A DNA stretch of 64,000 bases, from contig OZ260661.1 in the NCBI GenBank assembly GCA_965285935.1, positions 136,896,001 to 136,960,000 on the forward strand. The letters run 5' to 3'. This document shows, in pieces, positions 2,336 through 56,773 of this stretch (position 1 is its first letter; each line of letters begins with the position of its first letter). Source of the stretch: Ophelia neglecta (Eukaryota). The position numbers were made by a program, and so were the translations under genes. Under the pieces are notes generated by a model. That model worked only from the letters and a program-made list of their open reading frames with translations, made no database searches and was not told the origin of the DNA.

Positions 2336-3047
2336 CTATAATATCGTTTTAGGGGCCACACGCAGCTTGGGACCCTTATTATTTCACCGACATGAACCCC
2401 TTAGCATGCGCCTGACCTTAATGACAGTCTGCAAACACCGATGAAGGTAAAACATACGTCTGGTCATTGCATGAGTTTATGTAAATTTGACAGAATGGCA
2501 CACTCACAGTGGGTGTGAAAATCCTCAAATGGCCCCCCTGGCGTGTTATGCCAATCTGTGTTCCCTACCGAACAGTGATCACGCTGGCACGCTGAATTTC
2601 CAAGATTTCAGTCAGCAGGCCAAAGACGACATGATTTCTCTTATCATCTGATCACCATCCCTACGTAAATGTCAGATACTAGAAAGGTCATTGTGTGTTC
2701 TTAATTCAGTTTACTACTAGTTTTTCTTTATATATGCGGGCTTGTGTAATTCTAAAAATGGTTTCATAAGGCTTAAGAGAGTCAGTTTACAATTGATGTT
2801 TCTCTTTTGGTCTGAACATGTGTAGGATTTTGTAGATGTTTTTTAAAACCAACGCAGTAAAGGTGGAACTGATTGATCTTTTCAGGACACCATAGGGACT
2901 AGGGGCAATGCTCATCGACTTCATACTGTTACAACATCTTATCACACCAATTCACGTGCCAAGTCTTAATTAAAGACTTATACACATCTTAATTAAAGAC
3001 TTATACATATACACGCCATTCATAGCAAACTAACCCGATATCACTAG

Positions 3048-3432
3048 GAGCCTGTTTCATAGAGCCTGGATTACCGCGAAATCCCAGATCGAATAGCCTG
3101 ATTAATGTAGATGCCTATTTCATGAAGGGCAATCACAGTCTTACGCCACAAATCTACCAAATAGCTGGCTTATGATTTTAATCCAGGCTTATTTTTTGCA
3201 ACATAGTGCGACACGTATTAATAGATAAATGCATTTATGATCAAACCGCAGAATAACAGAAGTCTAGTCGTATTGCTGTGCTTGGCTTTAGCCTAACAAG
3301 CCTCTGCCAGCGGTGTTAATAGGCACAGATGTTCGTGGTGATAAAAAAGGAATTACATGTTAGTTGTAGTACTTTTCGAGCCTGGTGTTTTGACACGCCT
3401 GGCTTAGAAGCACATTTCTATGAAACAGGCCG
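3048..3432. mobile_element. MITE / non-autonomous DNA transposon
   Basis: Terminal inverted repeats GCCTGTTTCATAGA (3050-3063) and TCTATGAAACAGGC (3417-3430); no coding capacity. Confidence 0.7.
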
Positions 3433-4639
3433 CAGGAGCCAGCAGTCACTCGCCAATCCCCTGCTACCAAACTATTAATTGATAATGCAAGTTGATGAAT
3501 GAAATATAAAATTAATATCACTTTGAATGAGAGAATGTCAGAATATCACATAAATGCCTGGCTGGTTCCCTTACTTTATATTTTATTGCACTATCGAAGA
3601 GATTTAATAGCATTTTCCCTTTTAGATTACAGGGACCAATTTATCGTTTTGAGGCCTTTTCACCAGGATATTGGTGTAAGCGGGCATAAGAGCGTTGCCT
3701 TCTGAATGATTTAATAGACTTGATGTATAATTTTTTTTATACCTGTGTAACAGGTTTCGGGGTTCCCGGGGTAGAAGATAGGTACCCTACCCGCTTGGAA
3801 CACATTTGCTAACGCAAACCCGGATGTCTCTCGTTCGGGAAATTCTAGTATATTGGGGATCCGGCCTCGAAATCGTGGTTTGTTACGTGCGCCTGTCTTA
3901 TATTAGTGGTTTATTTCTTTCCCGAAGTCTTTGACTCTAGGTTTTTGAGTTCCGGGAATTTTCATACATTCTGAGGTATCAACTTATTTCATACACCAAT
4001 TTCCGGGTTTTGCTGTTTACCACATCATTCCCTCAGCTATTAGAACATTCTCGATTTATCATCTGTGCTTTTTCTTCCGCGAATCCACCACAGTCATTTA
4101 AATAGAAGATTAACCCCAATTGCACTTTTGCAATTCTGTTCTCAATGTATACTTTTTCCAGAAGGTGATTCCTTTTCGGTGAATGGGGATGTATATCATC
4201 AGACACCTGCTGCTGATGGGGAAAAATAAGATATGTTTGCACTCGTGTCTTCTTCTCAAACTGTTCACATTACTATGTGGATTTGAAATGGCATCGGAAA
4301 ACAGATAGCTATCACAAGTAAGATGAATTTCAATTCGCCAATGCAATTAGGTAACCACCACGATAGAATGAAAAGGGCTATAATGTCACCGGTGTTCTAA
4401 AAAGACAATACCAATTATGTCTTATGTATCGCATGTGATAAGCCTTTAATTTCGTCCATTATGCTTGAGCGAGTACTGTGTGAAGCCTCACAAGTCCATT
4501 GTGTCCGAAGAGTATGTACGAGTACATGTATATACGAAATCCAATAGCGTCGAGTGGAATTTGCTCAGACCAAATATAACACATGGCTACGAACTGATAA
4601 ATCACGCCTGTTTGCAACCTTATAGTTTTTTGTGCCATT

Positions 4640-4850
4640 TTATTCAGAGAAAAGAGGAACTCTTTCCGATAAATCGGTCCCACGTGGTCAGGCATTGCAG
4701 AATATACTATTAATAAAATGAGGCCAGGTATTGCCTTGTGCTCCTGGGCTCCAAGGCTCTGGGATCGGGACGCTCCTTTGGCGCATGTATGAGCAGACTT
4801 TGGGGTCACGTAATTTGCCAACAATGCCTCATGTTCTATGCAAATTTTAG
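4640..4850 (+). pseudogene. Highly degenerate L2-like reverse transcriptase fragment
   Basis: Frameshifted translation LQGSGIGTLLWRMY..TLGHVICQQCLMFYAN resembles the L2 motif PQGSVLGPLLFxxY..PLGxII..YADD. Confidence 0.35.
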
Positions 4851-5019
4851 TGAAACACGTGCATATTAAACGATAGAACCAGTCAACATGTTTGAGTCAT
4901 GCCTTTCAAGCCTTTAGGGATTGGGTGCTGGCAAATGCTAAATGCCGACAAAACCATAAATGTATTATTACCTAACGACTGATGTATTTACCTAGTTGTT
5001 GTTTTATTTTCTAGAGGAA

Positions 5020-5385
5020 AATGAGAGTGTACACTGTGTCACTCTGTGCCACCTGAATTATATATATTACCTCAGTTACTAAGAATGACCCCTTGTACTT
5101 TGAGCAAGCCACGAACCAATGGATCTGTTAAGTCTGCTTTACATATCTTATTCCATTCAATCAAATTCGAAATGAAGAATTTGCTGTTGCTTTGGAGGAA
5201 AATTTCTTAGAATGCCGAAAGATGAGCTTGTCTGAACTTCTTCAACAGGTATTTTCTCTCCGCTATCCGGTGTCGACCCTGTATCTAACTTTTACGATCA
5301 ACGTTGTAACGGCCCAACAAGTTGTGATTATCAAACAAAAAATGTTTCCAGTGACAAATATACCGGATTCTCCATCCCTGATGAT
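5020..5385 (+). pseudogene. Degenerate N-terminus (PHD-finger region) of a Crack/CR1-type ORF2
   Basis: Frameshifted translation CVTLCHLN..WIC*VCFTYLIPFNQI..VDPVSNFY..CDY matches the WxCxxC..FPFNxI..DPDxNFY..CxY pattern that precedes APE in these LINEs. Confidence 0.5.
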
Positions 5386-5590
5386 AGTTGGTTTAGTTTA
5401 AACATATTTATTTATATCTTGTGCGCATGTGCAAGGCGGGAACTCTTTTTCAAATCAGCTTGGATTTTCGATCTAAATTGTTGATTTTCACCGAAATATG
5501 ATATAGTGTTCCTTGTCGGATATGTGCATGGTGTTGTGTGAGTGTCAGTGGTTCTGTTGATGTTCACTTTTATACTGTGATACTAGAGAA

Positions 5591-6587
5591 ATGGAAGTAT
5601 CTGGTGATTCAAACGACTCCCTAGTCATAACAAAGGAGGAGGTACACCAGTTGGTAAAAGTCGGTCGACGCTGCAATGACAAACTTCACCGAAAACTTCG
5701 ACAAGCTGCTGAATGATAAACTGGATTATAAATTGCAATCTCTGGAATCCTGGGTATCCAGTGTGGACACGCGTGTAACTCAACACGAATCAAGAATTGG
5801 AAACTTAGAGGCACGACTTAATAAACAGGACCGAGTGATCAATCAGCTAAAAAATGAACTCTATGAAATTAAAAAAGCTGTTAATGATGTTGAAGCGTGG
5901 ACCCGTAAGTCAAGCATCAGAATAGCTGGTATTGCTCGAGGACAAAACGAGAACTGCAAAGCAGAGTGCGTTAAATTTTTCAAAAATAAACTCGATGTTA
6001 TTATCAAGGAAGAGGAAATTGACGTTGCACATCGGTTGCCCACCCAACAAACCGCCACCGGTAAGAAGACTCCCCCCACCATCCTGTGCAAATTTGTCAA
6101 AATTGACTCCAAAATCCAAGTGTTAAAAGCTAAGGGACCCAAAGGGGAAAAACTGAGGGATACCAAGTTCAGTGTCTATGAGGATATTACCAGATCAAAT
6201 GCTGCTCTCCTGTACTCGCTTAAACAACGCAAGACTGAACTTAACTTGCAGTCGGCATGGGCAGCAAACGGTAAAGTGTTTACTAAGAACTCCAGTGGTG
6301 TCATTCGCATTGTTAAGCCCCACGCAGTAGCCAGCCAAACTCCCTCACCCGGTCGAAAGCATCCGTTTGGCGATGCTCAGCATACTATGGAATCCTCCCC
6401 ACGGGTTCGGGTCCCTCAGATCACTGGCCGTGATGAAAAATGGAGCTCCTCAGTTGTCCGCAGCCCTAGAAGTACCCCTGGCGATGACCCCGCTTCTACT
6501 TCTAAGAAGCGACTCCACATGTCAAGCAGCCCAGAATTACCACCTGATACTGTAGACAAACTGAATTTCACAGTAACATCATGCTGA
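5591..6587 (+). pseudogene. LINE ORF1 (coiled coil plus L1-ORF1/transposase_22-like RRM and CTD) with a frameshift near the N-terminus
   Basis: ORF 5676-6587 has a heptad coiled coil, then RKSSIRIAGI..IDVAHRLP..ILCKF..VYEDIT..AWAANGKVF. The ATG at 5591 (MEVSGDSNDSLVITKEEVHQLV) joins this frame if the A-run in GGTAAAAGTC (~5655-5659) is corrected. Confidence 0.85.
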
Positions 6588-7390
6588 AACATGCCAAATA
6601 AGACTAAAACTATTCCTATGAGGAGCAAACAAATCGGTAACTGTATTGTTCGAAATGATCATCTCTTGCTTGGCAAAGGCTGAAAAATCACTAAAGTACT
6701 ATACTATCTGTTTATTGAATCCCACCTATCTAATATTACATGGCAATATTACATCTCACATTTACTTGACTAACTGCGAGGTAATACATATGCTTCAAAC
6801 TATCAGATAACATGCATGTTCAATGATGTCACATGTACCTATGTATTCAAATCTATTTGTAAGATAATATATATATTAGGAGGGCAATTTTTATAATACT
6901 TTTAGCAGCTCACCATTTGAATGCCATGTTTTGTTAGCGGGCATGTTTTCCTAGAATATGATACAAATTCGGCCTAGTATATTGTCTCCTGAACATATCT
7001 AGCTTATGTTCTTGTCGAAGGCAGAGAAACTACTTCATCCCTAACTACAGGGCCGTTTCTATTATCCCATTGTAACACCACCACATATCCCCTAGATCCA
7101 AAATTCTATCATTATGTATATACATGTATCACCATATTATTTGCCATCTCACCCATCTCATTTTCATTTTGCCTTTTCTTTAATACATATTTGGGGGCAT
7201 GGAACTGTATATGATAGTTTTTGTTCTACTCAATCATTGTCTTTGACACTACAAAACAGCTGATTCGGGTCACCACTAGGAAGCCTACTCGTGTTCAGTG
7301 CACTTTTGTGCCGTAATCGAATCGTTGTCTCTAAACTACTCTCCCTTGGCAGCTTATCCGTTAACACTTCTATTGTTCATAAACTATCAC

Positions 7391-10300
7391 ATGAATAACT
7401 CTTCCTATGCCAGACCTTGTGGCATGAGGTCATTCATGTCCAGTGTTTCTCTCACGTGTTGCGGTCTATTCTACTTCACGGTTATTAGAGAAATTCTTAT
7501 CGCACTTAGTGGCGATGTAGAGTCAAACCCTGGCCCTCAAGCTAAGGAATTTAATTTGATGGTTTGCTATATGAACATACGCAGTCTGGCAGCAAGGGCT
7601 GTTTCTAATGATCATGTTTTTACCAAATTCGACCACCTTGTAAACTTTGCGTTGTCAAATCCCGTCGATGTAATTGGCCTTTCTGAAACTTGGCTGGACA
7701 ACACTATATCTGACAGTGAAATCATGCTAGAAAATGTTCGGGCCCCCATTCGCAGGGACAGAAATCGCCATGGCGGTGGCCTTGCAATATATTTATCTAA
7801 TGACTTCCCCGGCAGTCGTGATGAAAATTTAGAAAGCACCGCTATTGAAAATGTATGTATTAGATTAAAACACCGTCATCATGCTGTCCTCCTATGCTTT
7901 TACTATCGCCCCCCTAATTTCGATTCTGTTACTTTTTTAAATGAGATCAACGTAATTTTAGACAACAGCAGGGACACGTATAATGCAGTCTTTTTCATTG
8001 GTGACTCCAATGCAAAGCACCAAGCTTTCTATAAGTCTGACTCCACGGATACAAACGGTCGTCTCTTTCACGACTTTTTCTCAATTAACAATTTTACTGA
8101 GATCATTTCAGAGCCTACAAGATATGGCCTGAATTCTGAGTCATGCATCGATCACATTTTTGCTGATTCTAACGCTCTCGACCTGGTACATCATAGTGGT
8201 ACATTTCAGCAGGTGTGCGATAACTCAGATCACAAACCAATTTATGTAGAAGTTAAATTGAAAATTGTCAAACTCCTCTCCTACCAGCGATATGTTTGGA
8301 ATTTCAAACAAGCTAATTATGATGAATATAGGGATATTTTATCACGCATTCCATGGGAAATTGTATTTGAACTTGACAGTGTTGATGATATAGCAGAAAA
8401 CATCATGAGCATTGTGATGGAATCTGCCAAACAGTGTATCCCATTCCAGCAAGTTGTCATCCGTCCCCGGGACAAACCTTGGATGACGTCGGTTACTAGA
8501 TCAGCTACTGCTGAGAAAAATCGACTGTATAAAATAAAAAATCGTAGCCCTGCCGACTTTATTAGATATAAAGCAGCTCGCAACCGTTCTGTTAATGTCT
8601 GTAGAATTGCTAAACAAAATTATGACCAACGTGGTGACGACGTTTTGCAGTCTTCTTGTAGAACCAAACAGTGGTACAACATTGTGAAAGGTATTTTATC
8701 AGGTTCCTCTCCTAGCTGTCAGTACCCTCTTAAGCATAATGGCTCACTTGTAACTGACTGTGATGACAAAGCTACGATCCTGAACAAATACTTTGTCCAA
8801 CAGTCAACGATTGACTCGGGCAACAAAACTGTCGGTGAACTACCCTTATACACTGAAGCAATTGTCAGTGACAAAGTTGTCACTGAATTCGAAGTCTTCA
8901 ATATTTTAAGCAACTTAGACACTACTAAGGCTACTGGGCCTGATATTATAGGCAATCGCATTCTAAGGGAGGGCGCTATAGCTTTAGCTAAACCACTTAG
9001 TGGTCTTTTTAATATTTCGCTGGGTCAGTGTGTCTTCCCTGCCATTTGGAAACGGGCAAATGTCATACCCGTCTATAAAAAGGATGATAAAACTCTCTGT
9101 AGTAACTATCGTCCTATTTCTCTTTTGCCCTGTGTCTCGAAAGTATTTGAACGCATTATGTTCAATCACTTATTCTCTTTTTTAAAAACACACAAACTTA
9201 TTACTCCTTGTCAGTCGGGCTTCATCCCTGGCGATTCCACAACGAACCAATTGCTGCGTAATTGCAACAACATTTACTCTGCTTTTGAGACGGACAACGA
9301 TATAATGGCCGTCTTGCTTGACTTCTCTAAAGCTTTTGACAGAGTATGGCACAGGGGTCTATTGTACAAGTTGAGGAGGTATGGAATTATCGGTAAAACC
9401 ATTCAGTGGATTTCTAGCTACCTTTCAAATAGACATCAACGGGTCACCATACCGGGCGGTATATCCGATTGGGAAGTTGTTCCAGCAGGGGTGCCCCAGG
9501 GCTCATAACTCGGCCCCCTGTTATTCCTTCTCTATATAAACGACATTGGAAATCACATAAGCAGCAATATTTATCTATTTGCCGATGACACTTCTCTTTT
9601 CAACACATTCAGTAGTGAAAATGTTCGCAACGCAACCCAAACAATAAATACAGATCTTGCTAATTTAAATCGCTGGTGCGACGAGTGGATGGTAAATTTA
9701 AATGTAGCCAAAACTCAATTCATGGTCTTTAGCTTGCGCAACAATCCCCTTATACCCACCTTATATATCCATGGAAGAGTAATTCCTTTAAAAGACTCTG
9801 TCAACCTATTAGGACTTACTCTTACTCAAAAACTCTCCTGGAGTGAACACATTTCCCATTTGGTTTCGAAGGCCAACAAACGTGTGAATATTTTGAACTC
9901 TCTTAAGTATAGATGTTCTAGAAAGGGCATTGAAATAGCATATGTCACATTCATTCGTCCTGTTTTAGAATACAGCTCTATCATATTTGACAGTTGTTCC
10001 CAACACGACGCAATCAGACTTGAACAAATCCAACTAAATTGTTTGAGAATTATATGTGGAGCTCGTAGGGGAACTTCTCATGATCTTCTGTACAATGAAA
10101 CCGGTTTTTCTCCCTTGGCCGTCCGGAGAAGATCATCTCGCCTTCTGAAACTATATGACATAATTTGGGGCAATGTTCCTGATTATCTTGGTGTATGTTT
10201 ACCACCACTTGTTCAGACCCTTGGCCACCGAACTCGCAGCTCGTCAAATCTCGCCCGGTATAATACTAGGTGTCGCACTGAAAAATATAAGCGCTCATTT

Positions 10301-10738
10301 CTACCTCAGTCAGTGTGTGACTGGAATACTCTCCCCCAAACTATAAAAGATATGAATAACCGCCGCCTTTTTTGTCTCAAATTAAAAGCCTCCTCTTTCA
10401 GTAAAATCCCTAAATACTTCTACCTTGGCTCCCGTTCTACTCAAATTATCTTATGCCAATTACGCCTTGGATGCAGTAGTCTAAATCATGACCTATTCCA
10501 GAACCACTGTATAGACTCTTCTTCCTGTAGCTGTGGCGCTCATTGCGAAACTGCCTACCACTATTTCTTCAGCTGCTCTAACTATGCACAATATAGGAAT
10601 CCACTACTTTATTTCCTTGCAATAAATAACCTTCAGTGTAATGTCTTTAACCTAGTTCACTCCACTAATGATCTCTTGGACAAAACCAAAATTACCTATC
10701 TAGAATCCTTCATTAACAGTACTCACCGCTGTCATTAA
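7391..10738 (+). pseudogene. LINE ORF2: 2A leader, APE endonuclease, reverse transcriptase and C-terminal Cys/His domain; one in-frame stop at 9506-9508
   Basis: APE motifs YMNIRSL, LSETWL, GDSNA, CIDHIF, SDHKPI. RT motifs NYRPISLL, LDFSKAFD, GVPQGS*LGPLLFLLYIND, FADD (9578-9589). C-terminal CSCG..ETAYHYFFSC. The frame is continuous across the stop. Confidence 0.95.
7487..7537 (+). other. 2A-like StopGo (ribosome skipping) peptide
   Basis: In-frame REILIALSG-DVESNPG-P, an exact D(V/I)ExNPGP consensus (7514-7537), immediately upstream of the APE domain. Confidence 0.9.
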
Positions 10739-11010
10739 CGCCATATTTGGCTTATATTGCATTCAGTGTTCTGCCTCTCTGCCCACAACTTAACCACCTC
10801 ACTTCATTTCATATCATTATCCCATAATGCATATTTTAATTTAATTGAATCTTTGTCTTTCTTCTCCGAGTTTATACTTTATTTTTGTTAATATTTCTAT
10901 AAAAGTGACCATCAACTATATTAATAATCAATTGATAATTTACTTCCGCTTATCTCATGTTTATTTATTTCCACCACTTTTGTACATACGTTGTGTTGTA
11001 TTCTGTTTTC

Positions 11011-11078
11011 CTGGCGATCCCCCTCGATTAGCCTTGGCTATTGGGGAGAGCCAGAATAAATAAATATGTTTAAACTAA
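11011..11078 (+). terminator. LINE 3' recognition stem-loop, poly(A) signal and tail
   Basis: CTGGC-GA-TCCCC..TAGCC-TT-GGCTA..GGGGA-GA-GCCAG followed by AATAAATAAATATGTTTAAACTAA. Confidence 0.8.
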
Positions 11079-12258
11079 CACAACCAAAAGATAACTCTGC
11101 ACTTAAAGTACCTTGGTATCCAAAATACTGGTAGAACTGTGATACCAAGTAATGTAAACCCTGAAGATACTGCGGAGTTTAACGCTACGAGGTGAAAACA
11201 AAGAAATACAAGAAAGTTGCTACACGGTGGCACAAAGCAGAGAAATTTGAATTAACGAGACTGATGGTTGACATAACAGAAAATTATAGCTACTTGTCAG
11301 TATTTGGTAATTATATTATTTAGGTATGGAATCATGTTCAAGCTCTCTTCTTGAGTGGGAACTCAGCGTTCGAAGTGAGATTTTACGACAGTTCAAAATG
11401 TTTTAGTTTGTTGTTATTCACAAAGGGATAGACATTGCTTTCCTTCCAAACAAGGTAGATTGATGTAGCTTATTCTACATACTTGATGTGTGTCAAAAAA
11501 GTATGCATGGGGGTACAAAAGGGGTCTCCTTGCTTATAATCATATGTTCATGGCTCTAGATTATAATTACTCATGGTATTAAATTTTTTTGTTGTTGTTG
11601 TTGTTGAAACTATTAATCTGATGCAGCTTGGTTAAAACTATTTATACTATATTTTCTAAAATTTGTACTTTTTAGCAGTCAAAGGCGTTCTGTAATTTGT
11701 GTGAACCTTCGATTTCCCCTGTTTCCACTCTACGTCGTATAGTTGTTGTTTATGTGTCTTTATGTAACAATATTATATCTAACACGCTCAAACCACAGCG
11801 TGGAAGATTACGATTTTGATGTATATTTTCCATTAGATTCTGACATTAAACCATGCATTAATTTTTGCATTTTTACCGGTTAGTAGGTAATGAGAAGATG
11901 GTAACAAATTATTTGTAGGCATGCAACATTTCTGAGACGTCACAGTCACCTTGACCATTTGTAAATACATATCAAAGGATGTCGGAGCACGACAAGATAA
12001 GGGGAAAAGGGATTAATATTTTTTCAAATTCACATGTGCAGAATCAAAGTACCCTGTGTTGCACTCGCGCAAAAAGGAAGAACTGAATAATGCGAGTGGT
12101 TCAATGAAGAATGTCGAAGTTGGCGCCTTCTCATTATGAATTCGTGAGCTTTATAAACAGTTTCTAATTCCATGGATGTGCATAAAACCATTGCAGAAAA
12201 AAACATGATAAATGACAAGTGCAGAAATTCCGTTCAGAAAAAGGGCATGTGATTTTGA

Positions 12259-12449
12259 TTAAATGCGGAGGCACTGACCCTGGTGGAGGTAAATTTTCCG
12301 ATTATGACACAAAACCAGACCTACATCACCCTGCCCTGACCTTTTCCCTTACCCTTAAATTAACCCCAGGCCTGAGCATTGCTGAGCATTCTTTGCTTCG
12401 TGTCATTCAGAAATACCCATGACCTTCGCCTCAGCACCTCCGCATTTAA
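12259..12449. mobile_element. MITE with TTAAATGCGGAGG inverted repeats
   Basis: TTAAATGCGGAGG (12259-12271) and CCTCCGCATTTAA (12437-12449); internal ACCCTTAAATTAACCC is shared with a diverged copy near 54190-54355. Confidence 0.65.
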
Positions 12450-14154
12450 ACAATAGCCTAGGGTATGAGAGATAAATTCCAAAGCCAATTACTTCATCAA
12501 TAATTTAATATGCATTGTAAACGCCAGCTGCTATGTTCCTCGGGCTGTCGTTTGCTTAACTTTATCTCAATTCGCATCTGTATGAAGCTTATATGCGATT
12601 ACATCACTGGTATTTATTGTTTCGGATTTGGCATTTGAATCATCACAGAAATTATAAGAACATCTGTAATACGCAGGGGGCCGTTAATTGTGCAGGTGCC
12701 GGTCGGTGCCAATGAAAATTGGAGGTACGGCAGATACACAGGTGCTGCACTGGAACAGATGCAGAATGTGGAACATGCGCTGCATGTGAAAGTTTCAGGC
12801 GAACCGGGTGCAAACTACAGGTGGTTCCGATGGTAAGTTGTTGGACTACAGATAGCCTTATAAAGTACCAACAAAGACAAACGTTTTTTTTGGATTGCGG
12901 AAAGATGGAATTTAGAAAGAGGTGTTTCAGCGTTTGCTCAACATTACATAAAAATGTCAGATGATCACCTTATATTGAACGATCTTCAGGACAAGCAGCG
13001 CCTTTCTTAACGCAAGACAAGTAGTCATCGTGCACTTACATTTTGTATGTTGCCCAATGAATTAGTCGTCCATAAGTAAAACTGAAAGGAATAACAAAGA
13101 GTTAAGTCATTCAGGCTATACCAATGCATTGAGGTGTAGAAATATACACGCTTACCGCAAGTATGATGACCATCTCTATAACTAATCCACTGATATTTGT
13201 TACTATCGTTTTAACCAGGAGCCCACTATCGTTTTAACCAGGAGCCCGGAATAAAATGCTAGTATTGGCCTTTATTACCAAAGGATGATTTGTCAACGCG
13301 CTAACCGCAGCTCCAAATTGCCCAAAAAAGAATCGTAGACACTACATTGATATTGCGCCGCTAATGTAAGTAACATCCTTTCACAGGTAACAACAGAAAC
13401 AATAAATTATTCTAGCTTGCATGACTCTCGCTTAACTGTTTAAAAGCCCCTCCTGTGCCCGGGCATGGTCAGTCGGCAAATGATTTCTGAGTCATTTGTG
13501 AAAACGTATATTTATGAACATTCTATACAGATTTAGGCCAGCCAATAACTCACCTGGGACTAAGGTGAACATGTCCATGATAGTCCAAGAACTCTCATTC
13601 CCAGCCCCTCGCGTGTAATTGTGTAAAATAACTATTGTACGTGCTTTTTCCATTCAACCTACCCCTACCACCCAACCCCGGGTTTCCCCCCTCTCCCCCC
13701 AAAAAAGTTCCCAACCCATTGGAGAGGTATTTTTTTCTGAAAATGATAAGGCCTAATATGTTTTGCCCTTAATGCCTATAAAGTGTAATTAAAAAGTTGC
13801 ATGCAATGCATTGTGCTAGACCATGATCATGGTTTGGACATTCTCTATTAAAAATCTCATTGTATGCTGAAGGCAACTAACATCACCTGAAACAGAAAGA
13901 TGAAACTAGCAGGAGGAAAACAGGATAGCTTGCGGAAATAGAAGACGAGACGAGGGTATTAATCAAGACATCAATTGGGGCAGAGAAAGTCAACCATCTT
14001 AAACGCCTGTTCTACATAGGCCTAGTTATCACATGGATTATTATTTACTGCTGCTATTACTATAGATGTAAATATGCATGGAAGTGGAACATATGACATT
14101 CATTCATTGATTTATTTTATAGAAGCAAATTTCTCCTGAAGAATACACATTCAT

Positions 14155-15059: not shown

Positions 15060-15720
15060 TATGTTTTTCTATACTTTGGGACATGACGATGTAGCATTGT
15101 CGTGAAACGAGTGCGGCAGTCCCCAGGTATTGCGTGAGGCACAATAAAACATGACAAACAACTTGGCAAGAAGAATATTTTCCGTCCAACTTTTAATGGG
15201 TGGAACCCGGTTTCCTCGTAGCTAAGGGCATGTGACGGGCACCACTTATTATTCTCGAGCATTTTAATTGTATTGTATGGGGAGAAAAAGATCTACACAC
15301 CATTACTTGGGTCCGTCGTGGGCATCTACATTTCAAAAGGTTTAGCATATTGGCTTAGTTCAGTGCTCGTGCAGTCAAACTGGAATGGGTTCGCCAAGAC
15401 AGCTTTGGAGTGATGGAGAGTCACAAATGGAAAAAATTGTCAGAAATTGGCAGAGTTTAAACCGCTAGAATAACTGTGCTGCTGTAGGGTTTCTAAGTGG
15501 GCTAAATATTGGAGATTGTGTCTTGAATTGATTAAATTGACAAACCATTGATCAAGACTGGCCATTATTTTTTGGATCCGGTAGCGATGATAGCATTTTG
15601 TTTGCAAAAGGTGAAGTATCATTAACAAATAATATACGTCGCTATTCACACAACTGGCTATGTCGTTTATGCCAAGGAGATACAGGAAAGGCCCTAGGAC
15701 AGACAAGTGCGGTAGACGTC
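15060..15720 (-). pseudogene. Old CR1 RT/C-terminal fragment related to the element at 5.4-11.1 kb
   Basis: PHLSVLGPFLYLLGINDI..LFANDTS and IQLKCSRIISGAR..YEETGFHPL, compared with IQLNCLRIICGAR..YNETGFSPL in the intact copy. Confidence 0.7.
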
Positions 15721-18473
15721 TTTCTTTATGTCCCCATATATTCTGTACGAGACAATACATTACAGACTGACTTATTAGTCCACCCTTGACGGTGCGCGTG
15801 TCCATACCGGGTACACCAGGTACGCTGGTTGGTTAAGGGAGAGTCTATAATTAATCATAAAGTATGAAATGACAAATAGCGATGTCTAAACCTCTAAACG
15901 ATCGCGAGCTCTGTTTGAAGCTGAAAGACCAAGATATGATCAGGATGAATGGAATGAATCCGTAATGCCCTGCGTTGGGGAGTAAACCCTAACCTTATCA
16001 TAGTCACTCCGGTATTGAGTGTACAAAAACATGTGCGTCCGATCGCTAAAAAGAAAAAGAATAAATAGCCACCTATGTACTTGTGATTCGACTCAGGGGA
16101 TTGTGTTTTTCATTTGTTGCAAGAGCAGATGTTGTGGTTCATGAAAATACAACCTCATGTGTATAAAAACCATTCGAGACGACACAATCAAATGCAGGAT
16201 ATGCATTATGCAAGTAATGTGATGAGATAGTGATGAATATAGCGCAGAAAAACATCTGCTATAACTCATATACATCTACTGTAATACCAGAGCATGTAAG
16301 TGGGCACAAAAGGTGGCATACATAAACTCTTTAGTCTAACAGTTCTGAAAATGAAATATGCAGTGTTGGTGGCAAATGTGCTGCATCAAGTTGGAAGCAC
16401 TCATGCACCGATACAGCAGTGATATATCGTCTTGAGCTTCGCTTTCTATTGGCGCCTGAATATTTCCACCTGTATTTTCTACTTAGAATAGTGGTTCCCA
16501 GATAAACAATTACATAAGTTTAAATAATCATACTTTGTTAAGCTAAACTTTTGATTAATCAGTAAGGTTTGCATAACATTTCTTGAAAAACAGAATATAA
16601 CTAGACAGTATGGACAACCTTTTGACAGCCGGACTAGAGAAAAATCTCTCTACCGGGGACTGAAGCACCTCAAGCGACTGGAACACCTCAAGTGTCCTTC
16701 CTTGAGGGAAAACCTCTCAGCAATTAGGGACTTAAACTCGAAAAAGATCTCTATCTATACAGAGGGGTTCGCCCACATGATAATACCACTAAATACCTGT
16801 GTTTAGTCCTTGCAATAAAGGTGACTCTGGGAATGGAATATTCTCCATTAAGCCTAGGGCAAAGTGACCCTTGACTACGGTAGACAGCAGCCTTCATTTG
16901 CCATTTACGCTTACCTATGACCGTCACCATAAATTTATGCTCCTGGAATCACACACTGTCTGGGTGACAACGTATCGCCAATTAGGGCAGATGTAAGCCC
17001 AGCGCCAATAACTACAACATCATTAGTCATTGAATGACTATAGTACAAAGCGGAAATGTTGGCTTGCTTTCGTAGCCGTCGGAAACAAGTCCATAATGCA
17101 CTTGTAACTTGAAAGCTTACATAGGATATAGTCCATACATAACGTCAGTAATGAGCATGCACCAACTGCATGAGCAGTGCGTGCAAATGTAGAAAAGGAA
17201 ACAAATCAACGGAAGTTATTATACTTACAAAAAAGCATCAGTATCAAATCCGAGTCCATTGGACTGGATTATTGCAAACTACATGACCCGGGGCTGTGCA
17301 CCAAAACGTTAGGGGTTCTTTGTAGACGGGTATGATAGTACGTAGGTGGTCAGATGGATGGGGCAGGGGTAAGTGTAATGTAGGCTAGGTAGTCTCCAGG
17401 AATTTTTGGACAGAAATTGCACATACGGTTGCTAATATATTATGATCGCCTTTCATCATTAACGAAGAGATCTTCTAAAGGAAGGTTACACAACCATTAC
17501 AAGTAATTGCAGTATATGTCAAATAAATTTGTATCCGGACATCAATTTGCTCAAAAGCCAAACTAGAGGTGTGACAATGCAAATCAATCCCTCTCAGGGG
17601 TTCCAGAAGTGACAAGAGCCATTTGCTCATCAGTCAGACGAGTTGATTCTACTCGTGGCTGGCCAGTGGGTCCATTTGTGTAAACTGACGCTAGAACCAT
17701 GCAAAACAAAATATATATACTGTCATACATTTAGACTATCCTTGGTGCTATGTTTACAGCCTGACACTGTGGGATTACAGAGTTATTAGTACACTTTACA
17801 TTAGTCGACACCTAGCTAGAGCATACGTCAGCTATTGTATTGATTTTGGGCAACTCAGTGATTCTTATATTGACTCTTTTGGTTTGCATCTGGTATTATT
17901 CCTAATAATACTAGACAGGTGCATGATTTATATATTTCGCAACCCAGAACATATACTTAAAAATGTAGTCCCTCATATAAGACAGCCTCCCCACATAATA
18001 ATGATTCTTGAGAAATAGCACGTCCCTGCTTGATACACACTTTTCGTTAAATAACAAAATACTACTTATTAGAAGCATTTCGACCACATAGTTCGTGTTT
18101 TGCTTGTTTGTTTTGCTGAGATATATACCCTTTTTGCACAATTTTCTCCAATGTTGTAGGGGCGGGGCCGGTTGCGATGGGTTCTGCAGTGAAAGTGATA
18201 TTTGTCGGCATGGACGGGCTGTTCCAGCGCTGCCGAAATCCACCATATATCTATGCACATTTCTATCCTTTTTCCCATTTATATTTCCTATATAATTGAT
18301 TCGTCAACGTTATATTTCTAAATGTTCCTTCTATTTTAATTTTTTCAAATGTTCCCTCTGCATTAGGGGCTAAAGTATGTTCATACATGTATATGTACAA
18401 ACAAGTGGGGTTCTCTAAATTATGCTGCATGGTAATGATATTATCTTTTTGGGGGGACTGCCCGAATTTTCGC

Positions 18474-18864
18474 CCATTGGTCCGAAGACCCATTGGTCCG
18501 ACGGCCTGTTGGTCCTATTTCCCCGTCTTGTTTATTGTTTATTGTGGATGATTAGTCTCGGAAGTTCGGGCCCGTGAGCTGCCTACCCTTTGTACGAATT
18601 CTTGGAGTCTTAACTAGAATATAATATCTTTGGATTTATTGGAGAAACTGTGTTTTATGCTTTGTGAATAAATTATAATATACATTTTCGGATAAATTGG
18701 AGAAACTATGTTTTATGCTTTGTGAATAGGATTTTGTTTAGTATCGAGGAACTATATTTCTCGCAACCGTACCTGACGGGTCCGAACTTCCGAGACTAAA
18801 CATCCCCAGGTGGTAAGTTAATTTAACAAATAAGACGGGAAAAGGACATATAGGCCGTCGGACC
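18474..18864. mobile_element. Foldback / nested MITE structure
   Basis: Outer IR GGTCCGACGGCC (18495-18506) / GGCCGTCGGACC (18853-18864), extending ~40 bp. Inner IR TAGTCTCGGAAGTTCGG (18553-) / CCGAACTTCCGAGACTA (-18798). An internal 33-bp direct repeat is also present. Confidence 0.7.
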
Positions 18865-21800
18865 AAACCCCCAACCACATTCCGGTTTCCAGCAAGTTTC
18901 AAAGAATTCCAGGGCGCATGAAAAATATTTACAGCAAACCGTGGCATAAGAATGCACATATTACTGTGTCTACGGGAGATTGAAAAATTATTGAACTCTT
19001 TATCAATTTTTGGCTGTACTCTGCAGTGTCAGTACACATTAATGTAATTATATTCACCATTTCTGCATGGTCTGCCCCAATTTATTCGAAATTTAAGTCA
19101 TAATAACGGCGTGTTTTCACATGAATTATTTTCTATTTTTTTATTAATTTCAAAAAATTATTTATCAGTCAACGGAATCAAAAGTAATAATTATGAGCAT
19201 GCGAAAATGTAAAGCACGGAAAACTTTTTTTTATATAATCAAAAGCTCAGAGAGAAACGATTCAATGTATATCGCACCACATACAATGTGTAGGCTTAAG
19301 GCTCCAGCAATTTGTGTTTAACCTGGAAAGGTATTTATCCCCAGCTTAGCCTTTAATGGTTATACTCGTTGTCATATTTTGGGTAAGAAAGTTGAAATTT
19401 CTTGTTATCGATCATGCCATAAACAAGAATAAAAAAGGACACCTGCGCAGTATATGGTCCCATATGTGTGTAAAATGTAAAATCGAGAACAAAATCAAAA
19501 CATGATTATTCTGATCATTTAAAAAGATGAACCGAATGGAACGCGAGAACTACTGTTCCTTCATTCAGACGATTCCTGAAAGGGGTCTTCCTGGACGTGG
19601 GAATTTGGTACCATATTTCCAGTCTGAATTGAGACAATTTCATCATTATTCTCAATGCTTTGCGAGACCTTGGAACATCTCAATCTCAAGTGGCATGTTT
19701 CATCCCTGTCCTAGGTTGATCACTGGCTCGTCGTTTGTCCGTCATTCTGACCCGCATCATGTAAAACTATCAAGTTATGTTATGTCAAGTTCGTTTACTG
19801 TTTGGGAGCTGAACATTGAATTATCGATGTGCGTTAGCCTGTGACTGCCGATTTCTGACGATTTCGGGCTGACTTTATGGATTATTTTTAACGAAGATTT
19901 GGCTATGCTAACTGGTATCAACACCCGTTTCTTTTAAATAATTAAGGTAAATGTACATGATATTGCATATATTTTATATACCAAGAAGGGACATGAAATT
20001 CCGTTTTGGCCACATTTCTATATCAAAACGGCTCAAATGGAAGACTACTGGGTGGCGAAAGCTGCTTTTAGTCTGTTTAATATGGGGTGTGACCGTATTT
20101 CGAGGCTTGTAATTTACCACTGTCTGCCTCGTCGGGATTTAAGGCGTTATTTTTATACTTGTACTAATCGAATTCTAACCAATGGGACCAATGCCACATG
20201 CCATTAAGTAACTTTCAATACAAAAAGGTGACCTAGCTTTCCAAGCAATGGTTTTGTCCTTTTACCTTTTGGGGATATATCAGCGCGGCCTATTGATGCA
20301 ATAAAAAACCTAATCTAGTTGTTCATTTTACAAGAATCTCTTAGGTTTAGCATCATTTACGAACATAATAATGTCTTAAACGCCAGTAGGAAAAGCTTTA
20401 TGGTTTATACATTTTATTTATTAATACATAATTAAAAACAAAGCTTATGAGCGTTGTACGTATATGTAAAAACGAATTTAATAAATAATGAGTAGTTTAA
20501 GCTATATTTCATTTTACAAATTGGTCGGCTTATGGTTACTTGTGTTAAGTACGAGTCATGAATAGCACTACATTGTTGTTCACGGCAGACATAAATGACA
20601 TGACACGAAAATATGCAAAAAATGGGATTTACAAAAGTGAAATAATCAAATTGGCCAACAAGAATTCAATACGAAACAAGTTTAGATATTAACATCTATT
20701 TACTTGTTATCCCTGATTACATATACGCACATTTCTTATTATAATATATTCACATACTAATATTTAACACAAAGTCATACCTAAGAAATTCACTTCTCTA
20801 AAGAAACAATGGTTAAATTAAGCCAGCCCTCAAACAACGTCATTCATGAAGCAACGACAATGCGGTGGTAATTACCGATCAAGCCGTGTACACCAGCTGA
20901 ATGCAACGTGCAGTAACTTAGAAAACATCAGAAAAGATTTGGAACATAAGCCAAATCAGAAGTCAAGAATAATCGTTTGATTCATTCAAAAATCACAAGT
21001 AACTTGCGGTTACAGCCCCACATACGACAATTAATCATTCATCAGCTCTCAAACAGAAAACATGTAACGATACGTAATATCCAAAAGAATATATCCATTT
21101 AACTTGCAATAAAGCATTTGTCCAATATGTGAATAACGTTCTATTTGTTCTGCTTGCCCATTGATCAGGCTAAAAGCTTTTGCAACTTTGTTCTTAGAAT
21201 ATCAGTGAAATATTAAAATGCAGTTTTCTTTCGCTTGTCATATCATTATTGTTAAACTTTCTTGCTTTCAAATGATTTTCGAATTTCGAGGTACCTGTTC
21301 AGTGTCAGCATCTTTATAAAGCCACCTTCAGATTTGGAATCCTGCTGGAGGTGAAGCTTGATATGATTGCTGTGATAATAGCATGTCTGTTTTGTATATT
21401 TGACGAAATTTTTTATGAGCATTACAAGACAATTTACTGCTTGGGAGCTGAGGATTGACGCATGTGGGGCTGATGATTTATGACCAATTAAATGGGCTAT
21501 TCTCTATAAATGACTTTTACTTTTAGGTCGGGTTTCACTCTCATTCTATGTTCGTCTTGCTGTTTTGCTGGGACAGCTTCATTGCCTGTGGAAACTCAAG
21601 TGCGTTGTGTTTCTATTACTGGCATAGACAAAATACTAGCCTTTTGCGTGTTCAAAGAAGCATATATACATATATAAGCTATGGGTCCATAGAGTGCTTA
21701 TATAGAGAAAAAGTACATACTGGTACTGCAATATATGCGTTAAATGAACCTAACCCTAAGGTAAGTTCATTAATCTTGAAGTAACTGGTACTACTATGTT

Positions 21801-50258: not shown

Positions 50259-50724
50259 AGACAAAAAGGACTGGATCCCCTGCAGACAAAGCCAATTCAT
50301 GATTCAAAAAGACAAAAAGGCACTGGATCCGCTGCAGACAAAGCCAATTCATGATTCAAGAAGACAAAAAGGACTGGATCCGCTGCAGACAAAGCCAATT
50401 CATGATTCAAGAAGACAAAAAGGCACTGGATCCGCTGCAGACAAAGCCAATTCATGATTCGAGGAGACAAAAAGGGACTGGATTCGCTGCAGATAAAGCC
50501 AATTCATGATTCAAGAAGACAAAAAGGGCTGGATCCGCTGCAGACAAAGCCAATTCATGATTCGAGAAGACAAAAAGGCACTGGATCCCCTGCAGACAAA
50601 GCCAATTCATGATTCGAGAAGACAAAAAAGGGACTGGATCCCCTGCAGACAAAGCCAATTCATGATTCAAGAAGACAAAAAAGGACTGGATCTGCTGCAG
50701 ACAAAGCCAATTCATAATTCGAGA
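50259..50724. repeat. Minisatellite, 9 copies of a 51-53 bp unit
   Basis: Unit AGACAAAAAGG(C/G)ACTGGATCC(C/G)CTGCAGACAAAGCCAATTCATGATTC(A/G)AGA, head-to-tail with no spacers. Confidence 0.97.
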
Positions 50725-53700
50725 ATAGTCCATTAAATCGAAATCATCAGGAACCGGCTTCCACAACGTCACATAATGTTAAAAGACCCCTGGTGTATTA
50801 TTTTGTTATATATTAAACATAAAACATAAATTCTTACCTGGAGAAGGCTTGCGGAATAGCAACGTTTATTTGTCGGATGTTGTCTCCTGTTAATGCTATA
50901 AAAGACCGTGACTTCTTATAAAGCTAGGGGAGCGATTGTATTTTTGCTATGGGTTGATTTCAGATTTTTATGTTGAATCCGAGAATTGGTTGGACAAGAA
51001 GAAGGTCAATGTTGGATGATGGGTATTCCTTTTTTTAGGTTATTGCGGGATATGATTGCTTAGTTAATAATATTACGATGAAAACTTGATTATTAGAATA
51101 ATAATGTGTAGTCGCTGATGTCATTGTATTCCTAAAGATATTTTAGATTCGTGGAGAAGCCTTTTGTTTGAGCACCGGAGCATTTATGTACATACAATAT
51201 ATATGGGGGTGTTTTAATTTGACAGATACAGGGATGTGCTGTATATCACTAATTTCCAATTTCATCTTTCTTACAATGTTAAGTAAATGATAATAAATAA
51301 ATAAAAACATACACCTGTGTGGGAATGTATTTGTCAGTAATGATTATGTTGCTTGTATTTTAAATGTCCACTATGCGGCGACACCGTCGCACCAGTCACA
51401 TGGGTCACCCATGCCATGCCAGTTAGCTTAAAAATATTGAAAGAGTCTCACCTGGCAACCGTACATGTATCATATTTCATATTAATGATTATGTTTTCTG
51501 TTATTCTACGGAAGAATTGATATGGTAATAACTTGAATAACCTGAGAAATAACATCATTAAAACCTATGGAGAAGGTACAAGTCAGTTTTTTTTAATGTT
51601 ATCTTGGAGCCTAACTATAACGGTATATTACATGCTTTGTCTCCGAGTAACTTATACATGTATTTATAACTATTTACAGATTTTATATATTACTTAACTC
51701 TGTACAGACATCCTCATAGTCCCTGAATAAATATATGTACTCGAACACGGTCTTTTCTTTATATTTTGACCCACCATATACAACAACTCAAATACCATAC
51801 ATGGTATTACTTACAACGAAATAGTCACCAAGTTTCCCCGGGTAAAGCCCAAACGAAAACAGAGATCAAATATGCTCTTGGAGAGTATATTTAGGTCTCA
51901 TATATCCCAAACGTTAGAGACTAATGGTGAAATTGTTTCAATAAACCGATCCTTCTACCCGGCGATATGAGCGCTGTATTTCTGACACTCCAGTTTACCG
52001 GTAGCGGCTTACGAGTGTTTTTGGTGTTTGGGTATTATATGGCGAGAATACCCCAGTGCCCGAAAATAAACACAAGAAAAGAGAATGACGTTAAACTTTT
52101 TTGAATATTCTGGCGGGGAATGGTATTAAACCGCGTCGATAGTGAAGGAAAATGTAATTTAGATTAAGTAAGCAAGTCACGCTTTAATCGGGACTCACCA
52201 TGTGCATTTGCTGTATACGATTATATATCAGTACGACGCAGATAAAATTGGCCCTAGCATGAGAGGAATATATCACCAAAAGCCATTGTTACTGACAATG
52301 GGACGCAGAGGTTTCCGCTTAGTTTGGAACCACCTATCTTAGTATTGTTTTCCGCTGTATAGGACAAAACTCAGTGGCGCAACTTGATCTAGCAATCTCA
52401 TGGCCGGTCGTTACCCTTTGCAGATTAGTACTTCATTCCACTTCACATGATACACACCAATGCGACGATGTGAAATGAATTAATCTTCCGCAAGCCTAGG
52501 CTCTCCGTGGGCGAAATATGAATCACTGTATAATGTGTTGTTTAATGTCTACTTGTGTTTTAATGTCAACGCGCTGGCAAAAAGTGTCGAGTTGTCTCTA
52601 ATTATCACGAAATCTTTGACCTAGCGTTTCTTTTTACGGCTGTTTCCTGAAGATTTCCTGCCGGTTTGAAAGACTCTTCTATCTAAGATTTGCTCTGGCT
52701 GCCGGGAAGCAACTCTCATTTTTCGCAAACCAATGATTGTTAGCTTTTTTAATGAGTCGGCACAGACAAAAAAATGAGTCGTCAACGTGGCATAAAGAGG
52801 ATATATTCCATGAGATAGCCTGTTCCTGGCCGTGCCACAGCTCTACACTCTGTGTGCACTTTTTTACATTCCGTTCGCCGCAGACGAGAAGTTTACAAAC
52901 ATAGTATGACTATTTTTCTATAAAGAATAAAGTTAAATTGCATAATCGTTGCTTTGCACTTTCATGCAAACAGTTTATATAAATTGTGCAAACATTAGTT
53001 TCCAATATTGCAAGCTTTGTGTTTCCCAGTAACAAGAAAGTATTATTATTTGCGATTATTTCCTTTATGTCGGAGAGGCGACCGGAGGTGTTCACAATCC
53101 CGAATAAGATCGGCTTCAGTTCTTTCTCTTTCAGGTTTCAAATCAATCTAATATTTTTATACTTTATTCAGGTATTTTGGAATATTCGGTTGGTGTTGTA
53201 GGCTTAAAACACTTTGCAGATGTCCCCAAACGGTACTCAGAACATATTCAGTTATAAAAGTAATTTTTTATTTTTCCCTTGTTTCGACAATTTTAAACAG
53301 ACATTAATGGCAGTATTTCGAACTTTTTTCATCAAAGAAATTCCGCTGTAAATCTGGGTGACTTTTTGCACGAGCCTTGAAATTATGTTAAACACATGCT
53401 TTATGTTTTGCTTCAGTTTTTGAAATAGAATATACCCATTGTACAAAATGTATTGTTGATATCCGCCTTCCTCTCCACAAAATTATTATACTAAATATGT
53501 TACCTATGTAGAAAAAAGTGTGCTGAAAAAACCGGGAGTGCAGAATGTGTAGCAACCCATGTCGATTCTGAATTTTTACCTACTCATTTATGCCATTTTG
53601 CGCACGATGATAGTGTAATGTTTTTTACTTAATAGGATTTGATGCCTCCGTTGCAAAAGGTCCGTAGATGAGAATGTTTAACCAGAATCGAGACCCCTTC

Positions 53701-54577: not shown

Positions 54578-54856
54578 TGATTGATTGATTGATTTTTTTT
54601 TTATTTTGCAAATAAGTTTACACGGACGCTAGCAATAACCTCTGGGCCGTAGGTGTTAGACGCCCAACACCATCCTAATTTGTATCATTTCTGAATTGTT
54701 TTTTATCTCCCCCGGGAGTATACGTGGTGCAATCGCCTTAACGCCCAAGAACCTTATTTATTAATCCGCCAGACACCCATCGTCTCCTGGGAGGAGAGTG
54801 TGGCGGCGAGGTTAAGATCCTTGCTAACAAACAAAAATTCCGTTGCCTCGACCGAG
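54578..54856 (-). mobile_element. Degenerate SINE-like retroposon (CORE-like)
   Basis: (CAAT)n / A-rich tail on -. ACCCAT..CTCCTGGGAGGAGAG..GGTTAAGATCCTTGCT resembles the reverse complement of the CORE domain. Confidence 0.35.
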
Positions 54857-54861
54857 GGGTG

Positions 54862-56773
54862 GGGGGGGGGGGCATGCCTCGCCGTCAACTCGGCCACTGC
54901 GCCCCATGTGCAAACTTATATATTAAATCGGCCACGTCTATGTGTTTATTCGAGTACTGTGATCAGTTATAACTTCATCGTTGAGAACACATGGTATAGC
55001 TTAGGGTATAGCTTAGGGTATTTCCCATATAATATCATTCAAATGAAAACAATTGGGTGCAAGGTAATCAAAAAGAAATCGACCCACAAAAGAGTTCAAG
55101 TATCCATAGACCAGATGGCGAGTAACCCATTCACCTACATGACATGCGGTGTCCTGGTTGGTTTAACATCAATTGTGAATATGTTCCTCATAAAAAATGC
55201 TTGATTTAAATTATGTCCTAATTAAGTTAGATACAATGAAGTATTAAATTAAATATAATCAACTAAAGTGTATATTTAGAACAAATTTTAAAAACAAATA
55301 TGTGCATACGAAATGTAATGATTCATTTTCAAATCATGCTTGAATTTTACTCAACCCTTGGAGAGATGGAGGAACAGCATATTTCTCTAGTTATATATCT
55401 CATAAAGCATCGACCTTTGAGGCTTATCATTCCTTACAATATTTAATCACTCCTAGTCCAAGTTTGGCATGTTGAATATCCCATTCACAATAATGCACTA
55501 AAGGATGTTTATCATATCTCTGTATGCCCTGGGAGTTCCCAACATCTCAGAGATTTAACTTTGAGTATTAACCAAGCTTTGGTTTCCAAGAAAAAGCCTG
55601 ACTTTGTCCCAAAGACATAGAAGGAAGGAAATTTTTCAATTGTTGAATAAGACTAAAACAAAATACGTATGCTATGTGGTTAGGTTAATTTCACGTTATC
55701 ACAATTGTGAGATGTTTGCCTTTTGTACGCATCTTAATGTAAATCGACATCAACTTGCAGGATACTGACATCTATGTACTTGCCATAATTATTAACCTTT
55801 TATTATATAAAACTGTTGTAAAACTATTAATGCTTAACATAGCCTTCCAGGTGTTGTAAATTGGGCACACGAGGGCCAGTGCGACGTGGGATTAAATACC
55901 CATCAGAATCAAAGGGAGCCTTACTAAAGCAAAAGATAGCTATGGTAGTCAGTGCCTTAACAACGATGCACACACTGCAGTATGATCAGTAATCCAATCT
56001 TTCTGAAGGCTAGGCACAAAAGTTTCATACGTATAATTTAAATTATTTCATGTTACAGGTTTGCGGGCAAAGCTACCAGGATAGCTTGGGCAGTCCTCTT
56101 AGTTAATATATTATCATGTGTATCCCTTTAAGAGGAATGAAGAAACTTGTTACCTGATGACACTATTCATCAGTGTATATTCTGCAGATGACATTCGTTT
56201 ATTTTTCTATGCTAGCCTCTTCCAGATCACAAACTTCATCATACTAACTTTAAAACGTGTAGTTTTGTTTATGACTTTGTTTTCAAACAAGGGGACGGTT
56301 TTCTTTGCAAAAAAAAAGGAGTGTGGCCCAATCCGAAAATCGCAGTCCGCAAACAAAACACATATTTAATTGCTTATAGTGTATCTGGAACAGTTTTGAT
56401 ACCAATATCTTGTGTTATTTGTGAAAATGATGCCGTTACCAAACCTTTACCGAGGCCAATACTTTTAAGAAGTTTTCTGTCAACGGGCAGTGGCTCAATG
56501 ACATAGGGATATACGTTCGCTTCATAACATGCTCAAATTATTTAATATACAATGTTTATGCCCTGCCCTAGATAAGTTTTCATCAAACAAGTATAATATT
56601 GTCGGAATCAATTCAAAACAACACGTGTACTGATACCACATTATTTTATTGTTTCACACGTATGTTTTCGATGAAGTTTAAAGGTGGTTCAAAGGAAAAT
56701 GATATGCCTTAAGAGTTGATATAACGATTAAAACGTCAAGTATATGTTTAATAGTGATATGTCCTAGTAAATT
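54862..56773 (+). repeat. ~2-kb diverged duplication, copy 1
   Basis: Colinear with 61641-64000, e.g. GCATGCCTCGC..TGCGCCCCATGTGCAA, ACCAAGCTTTGGTTTCCAAGAAAAAGCCTGACTTT and TAATAGTGATATGTC.TAGTAAATT. Confidence 0.95.

Follow-up and report, generated by a model that had tools for sequence, protein, structure and literature searches.

A 23-nt inverted copy of the 3′ tail beside the 5′ end of a full-length CR1/L2-like LINE: a likely one-off scar of insertion

A full-length LINE on the forward strand of the window (the whole 64-kb stretch of DNA that was analysed) is preceded by an inverted copy of the last 23 nt of its own 3′ tail. This inverted copy is real and non-random. Since the sister copies do not carry it, it is likely to be a one-off scar of the window insertion and not a feature of the family. 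The arm probably arose because reverse transcription started from the two broken DNA ends alike, on the RNA tail of the element, a reading to which a probability of about 0.55 was assigned; this value, as well as the lower weight given to a snap-back of the cDNA on DNA, is a judgement and was not computed. The arm is a variant among the known types of 5′ junction and, as a single event, gives no sign of function. Short fold-backs that recur elsewhere in the genome are the firmer and better documented result.

Results

Structure and classification of the LINE

The element (5421..11078, + strand) is an APE-type LINE with about 95% identity to its full-length sisters. We take it to belong to the CR1/L2 type, a label based on anatomy and the 2A-like motif. 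ORF1 (5658..6587, +) is a frame of 309 aa from stop to stop with a coiled coil and a weak likeness to L1 ORF1p (2yko/2ykp, E = 0.02 in a structural-database search); matches to hemagglutinin were discarded as coiled-coil noise. ORF2 (7280..10738, +) encodes an AP-endonuclease followed by a reverse transcriptase (PF14529, PF03372, PF00078), the order of APE-type LINEs, and its best structural-database match is L1 ORF2p (E = 8e-12). It is interrupted by one in-frame stop, at 9506-9508; in a comparison of four full-length copies, the window copy, with this single ORF2 stop, was the most intact. A putative 2A-like motif, GDVESNPGP (7511..7537, +), lies at the beginning of ORF2 and immediately precedes the endonuclease domain, with motif and position as in PMC3708506. 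That paper reports such a motif in CR1, L2, Crack and Rex1 elements; the window element also retains an ORF1.

Copies of the family span 46-5,658 nt and show the common 3′ end, variable 5′ truncation and target-site duplications of APE-type LINEs. The 3′ end is made of ACTAA-type short tandem repeats and not of poly(A), as in CR1 and L2 elements, and 36 of the 44 target-site duplications overlap the tail by 2-3 nt. This overlap is not exclusive to CR1/L2, because PMC6007223 describes a target overlap of the 3′ end for CR1, L2 and RTE.

Tail copies in the genome

Genome-wide exact matches showed that the 23-nt tail (11056..11078, +) is common, letter for letter, to at least three LINE families, and sister copies bear extra ACTAA repeats. 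More than 1,000 related tails ending in AAACCAA were found genome-wide, many of them in copies cut at about 25-35 or 60-75 nt.

Tail loci were surveyed in two sets. The first, drawn from 100 listed of the 116 exact tails, gave 96 loci, of which 82 were independent, and the other four listed places (the two head-to-head pairs) were handled separately; locus boundaries were set automatically and cannot be relied on where a copy is the longest of its family. The second set comprised 52 loci enriched for very short tails. With a strict filter, a clear target-site duplication was present at 44 of the 82 loci. Six of the 82 were insertions of 26-36 nt with a clear duplication, i.e., early stopping is common. 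Seven tail copies at G000:C1:144.68-144.82 Mb (L055-L061), with shared flanks and 16-28 kb apart, form a tandem segmental array.

The inverted arm at the 5′ junction

The arm (5393..5415, − strand) was recovered by a repeat search. When the sequence was re-checked, it proved to be the exact reverse complement of 11056-11078, as claimed in the initial annotation. It lies 5 nt outside the element, whose start is placed at 5421 because three other 5′ ends in the genome start at the equivalent base. A search of the flanks of the LINE also bore out the earlier remark that there is no target-site duplication. The repeat finder extended the arms to 5387-5415 and 11056-11084 (29 nt, 93%). However, the outward 6 bp, previously taken as an extension of the match, had to be removed from the duplication, since they are host DNA at both ends: the left GTTGGT continues the reading frame of an older LINE whose homologs have GCTGGT at this place, and the right CACAAC is also found in a paralogous region without the element.

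Positions 5360-5451 are covered by contigs from two sequencing runs with 0 differences to the assembly, and read-derived contigs reveal the same junction on a second allele, which differs at about 5390 and at 5421. The junction is thus supported in the reads by two runs and two alleles, and an assembly artefact was ruled out, with a residual probability that is practically nil. Since all the runs come from one sample, possibly that used for the assembly, and were read in contig form, they exclude an assembler error but do not add a second individual. No joint skipping the element was found in the contigs of three runs from this sample, which show presence and not absence.

With 116 copies of the exact 23-mer in 762 Mb, chance would produce 0.026 head-to-head pairs at distances up to 6 kb and 0.00026 at distances up to 60 bp. 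Two such pairs were found among the 100 listed of the 116 places, the window pair and one with a distance of 16 bp. The expected counts are incompatible with a chance meeting of abundant tails, the case that the initial annotation had named as fatal to its proposal. A further head-to-head pair, 8.3 kb apart (L191), was rejected as two ordinary elements of different families.

Is the arm a family trait?

One of the two origins put forward in the initial annotation was that the termini of the family are intrinsically complementary and could form an RNA panhandle. The complementarity is perfect, but at one locus only. The arm is absent from 14 of 14 other insertions of the family among the 82 independent tail loci, two independent full-length ones included, and for this reason the panhandle idea fails and its probability was set close to zero. 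Terminal inverted repeats would be expected in all full-length copies, but none of the three other 5′ ends, which come from two independent insertions, bears the arm. Both independent full-length sisters share the start base and have ordinary duplications of 10-13 bp, and the alignment of family junctions gave no inverted tail at a constant position in full-length copies. In addition, the pattern of an inverted tail followed by the element start has a single match in the genome, the window locus itself.

Host flanks, deletion and filler

The left host flank (5026..5392, +) is a fragment of an older, different LINE with 72% identity to 11 homologs. Its frame ends with SIPDDSW, just before the endonuclease domain; the homologs align through 5392 and continue with SMLHLNIRS, and the corresponding endonuclease-domain continuation is absent from the 64-kb window. 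The right host flank (11079..11207, +) is pre-existing DNA, with an 81% match to a paralog at G000:C1:136737651 without the element. More widely, 3008-5035 and 11055-14000 have old paralogous counterparts, at about 85% identity, in a region that lies about 165 kb upstream (L171/L172). In that region the left and right homologies stand 2.2 kb apart, and this 2.2-kb middle part has no match within the window. Since the two flanks were not contiguous before, their comparison suggests that DNA was lost here without a target-site duplication. The deletion presumably happened during the insertion of the window LINE; because the empty site was not seen, it is not datable to that event.

The 5 nt of filler between the inverted tail and the element start (5416..5420, no strand assigned) match the reverse complement of 11088-11093. 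The match to the inverted right flank is 6 nt long, and 9 nt on the second allele, with probabilities by chance of 1.2% and 0.09%, respectively, per 30-nt window and orientation. Because of this match, the cDNA end probably reached back to its primer strand at least once. Such a contact fits both double priming and snap-back, because two cDNA ends still needed joining. In addition, the last 8 nt of the left flank agree at 7 of 8 positions with the complement of the tail-repeat continuation, and the mismatch is compatible with a G-U pair. The same level is reached after 9 of 82 real tails compared with 0.18% of 15,580 background 8-mers, a statistic that was chosen post hoc and was discounted.

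Other features were noted in the window. An open frame at 15440-15832 (−) contains a decayed reverse-transcriptase-like stretch, likely another LINE fragment, and nested inverted repeats at 18493-18866, with arms of 30 and 36 nt, resemble a small DNA transposon of the non-autonomous kind. Units of about 52 bp are repeated in tandem at 50263-50780, and 54856-56773 and 61665-64000 form a direct duplication, 77-93% identical, with a spacing of about 7.2 kb.

Short look-alikes elsewhere in the genome

In pattern searches and the two surveys, an inverted copy of a 3′ junction was found at nine other loci (L035, L036, L126, L146, L147, L166, L167, L224 and L228), all of them with forward inserts of about 40 nt or less. 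Because these searches are biased towards short inserts, the number is at least nine, and we give no rate. In eight, the copy goes beyond GTTTAAAC and 9-61 nt or more into host DNA; in L228 it goes only 5 nt further, and this case is ambiguous. Because flank DNA is absent from the RNA, these eight were copied from a DNA template. A duplication outside the inverted block was found in six of the nine (L126, L146, L147, L166, L167 and L228). Four (L146, L147, L224 and L228) fold at one common place, where TTTA of the new cDNA could anneal to the TAAA within the same molecule, and in L146 there is in addition a filler of iterated TGAGAC. The inverted copy of L036 begins at the same tail position as the window arm. 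The short fold-backs fit well in the snap-back class of R2 junctions (PMC11371274, PMC11331408) and agree with the extra 5′ bases, templated in origin, of L2 elements (PMC4245944, PMC4760211).

Inverted matches of 9-11 nt at L131, L098, L063 and L069 were rejected as palindromic duplications or AT-rich chance, and L143, a loose-pattern match, has no inverted arm and was not counted. The loose-pattern matches L160-L165 and L168-L170 were partly inspected and left out of the count.

A genome-wide pattern search for a double tail with a spacer of 60-360 nt gave 0 matches. No long, tail-only case was found among the 19 other insertions over 1 kb, the 52 loci enriched for short tails or the 82 loci of the first survey. 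The window locus is thus an outlier, being full length (one of 20 insertions over 1 kb), tail only and without a duplication.

Discussion

Origin of the arm

In the preferred reading, the right end would prime normally and copy all 5.66 kb, while the left host end, TAGTTGGT, would pair with extra tail repeats of the same or a second RNA through one G-U pair. The left-primed cDNA would copy 23 nt and stop, end-joining would unite the two cDNA ends and leave 5 nt of filler, and whatever DNA lay between the breaks would be lost. Double priming accounts for an arm that ends at the tail terminus without any copy of the flank, in contrast to eight of the nine other events, and for the absence of a duplication, which is clear at 44 of the 82 loci under the strict filter. 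The 7/8 match of the left outward 8-mer to the tail-repeat continuation (post hoc as it is), the extra ACTAA repeats on sister copies and the commonness of early stopping (six of 82) also argue for it, and PMC11702581 provides a precedent, opposite-orientation L1 inserts from two ends extended by reverse transcriptase. In addition, snap-back onto the tail apparently falls off with length, since the nine events are all about 40 nt or less and none has a spacer of 60-360 nt. Nevertheless, there is no second long, tail-only case (0/19 over 1 kb, 0/52 short-tail loci), eight of the nine look-alikes indicate DNA templating with the ninth ambiguous, and L036 shares the tail position at which the inverted copy starts. 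The filler match places the cDNA end probably at the primer strand, and with the empty site not seen the deletion stays undated. L1 twin priming retains duplications of 12-18 bp (PMC11702581) and ZfL2-1 gives no 5′ inversions (PMC4245944). Double priming on the RNA tail, the other origin put forward in the initial annotation, is therefore kept as the leading reading at the window locus, but its recurrence is not, since no second case appeared in 82 + 52 loci.

The two origins put forward there had left out a DNA-templated snap-back, which explains most of the look-alikes in the genome and is the serious competitor, with a chance below even. The full-length cDNA would have folded back at its end onto the strand that had primed it and copied a few bases of the flank, the filler. 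It would then have slipped to the tail start, added a 23-nt copy made on DNA and been joined to the resected left end. The nine other events favour it, eight of them running 9-61 nt or more past GTTTAAAC and six having a duplication outside the inverted block, as does the filler match of 6 nt, or 9 nt on the second allele. R2 snap-backs arise after full-length cDNA (PMC11371274) and extra 5′ bases of L2 are templated from flank or LINE DNA (PMC4760211). However, the window copy stops at the tail end and retains the host GT, not the CA of the flank, the resemblance of the left host end to the tail repeat, at 7/8, is left unexplained, and the nine comparators are without exception tiny inserts, with no spacer of 60-360 nt among them. 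Far less probable are two unrelated insertions, a very short minus-strand tail and a later full-length LINE, adjoined by chance or by deletion. Very short tails do occur (six of 82), more than 1,000 related tails are available and the flanks are discontinuous, but no separate duplication accompanies the short arm, and the counts put the odds of its coming to lie no more than 5 nt from the 5′ end of a full-length element far below 1 in 1,000 per junction.

Double priming at this locus and the short fold-backs can be joined in a wider proposal, which is tentative and rather doubtful as a whole. The RNA of a CR1-type LINE would bridge a deletion-bearing break by its repeated tail, with both DNA ends priming there, and the product would be an element of full length with inverted tails on either side; the self-complementary tail (TAAA...TTTA) would also, in this genome, fold very short cDNAs back repeatedly, and these families would be a recurring natural source of inverted duplications. 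The attachment of a LINE's 5′ end to the chromosome is still open beyond L1 and R2. So far, double priming from the tail and snap-back of cDNA have been observed mostly in tumours and engineered cells, and natural germline cases of the CR1 type would extend both processes to invertebrate genomes.

Comparison with known systems

A literature search turned up no CR1-type LINE for which an inverted copy of the tail had been described. Among the closest descriptions are those of R2 snap-backs, in which reverse-complemented cDNA or nearby target DNA is found joined at the 5′ junction, and this happens after full-length synthesis as well (PMC11371274 and PMC11331408). The descriptive definition of a snap-back, as worded in PMC11331408, fits 5393-5420. 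In contrast to the window arm, which has no flank DNA, the R2 cases come from engineered insertions in human cells (PMC11371274, PMC11331408). Zebrafish LINEs of the L2 clade are alike in having filler from flank or LINE DNA in an annealing-type end joining, whereas the available text of PMC4245944 and PMC4760211 does not describe a copy of the extreme tail and gives no 5′ inversions for ZfL2-1. Somatic L1 foldback inversions also place a short inverted duplication beside the 5′ junction and are rare (3 events, 0.3%), but they duplicate DNA upstream of the target and not the tail (PMC10191854).

In L1 twin priming, a second DNA end primed by microhomology on the LINE RNA likewise leaves an inverted piece at the 5′ junction; the primary cDNA can pass the second site, duplicating sequence, and inserts bearing tails at both ends have been described (10.1101/2024.08.27.596794 and PMC11702581). 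A statement that twin priming duplicates no sequence would be too strong: 283 of 1,703 5′-inverted L1 insertions (17%) carry an internal duplication, which arises if the second priming site is overrun by the first cDNA (10.1101/2024.08.27.596794). The window locus differs from these in its CR1/L2-like element, its invertebrate-type genome and a second site that would be the extreme 3′ tail, with the primary cDNA at full length. Its inverted part is the last 23 nt and not an internal segment, and its forward part is complete. The flanks are discontinuous, and since the typical duplication, of about 10-20 bp, is absent, the locus was not filed as classical twin priming. By analogy, it would be a limiting case of duplicating twin priming, with the second site at the tail itself.
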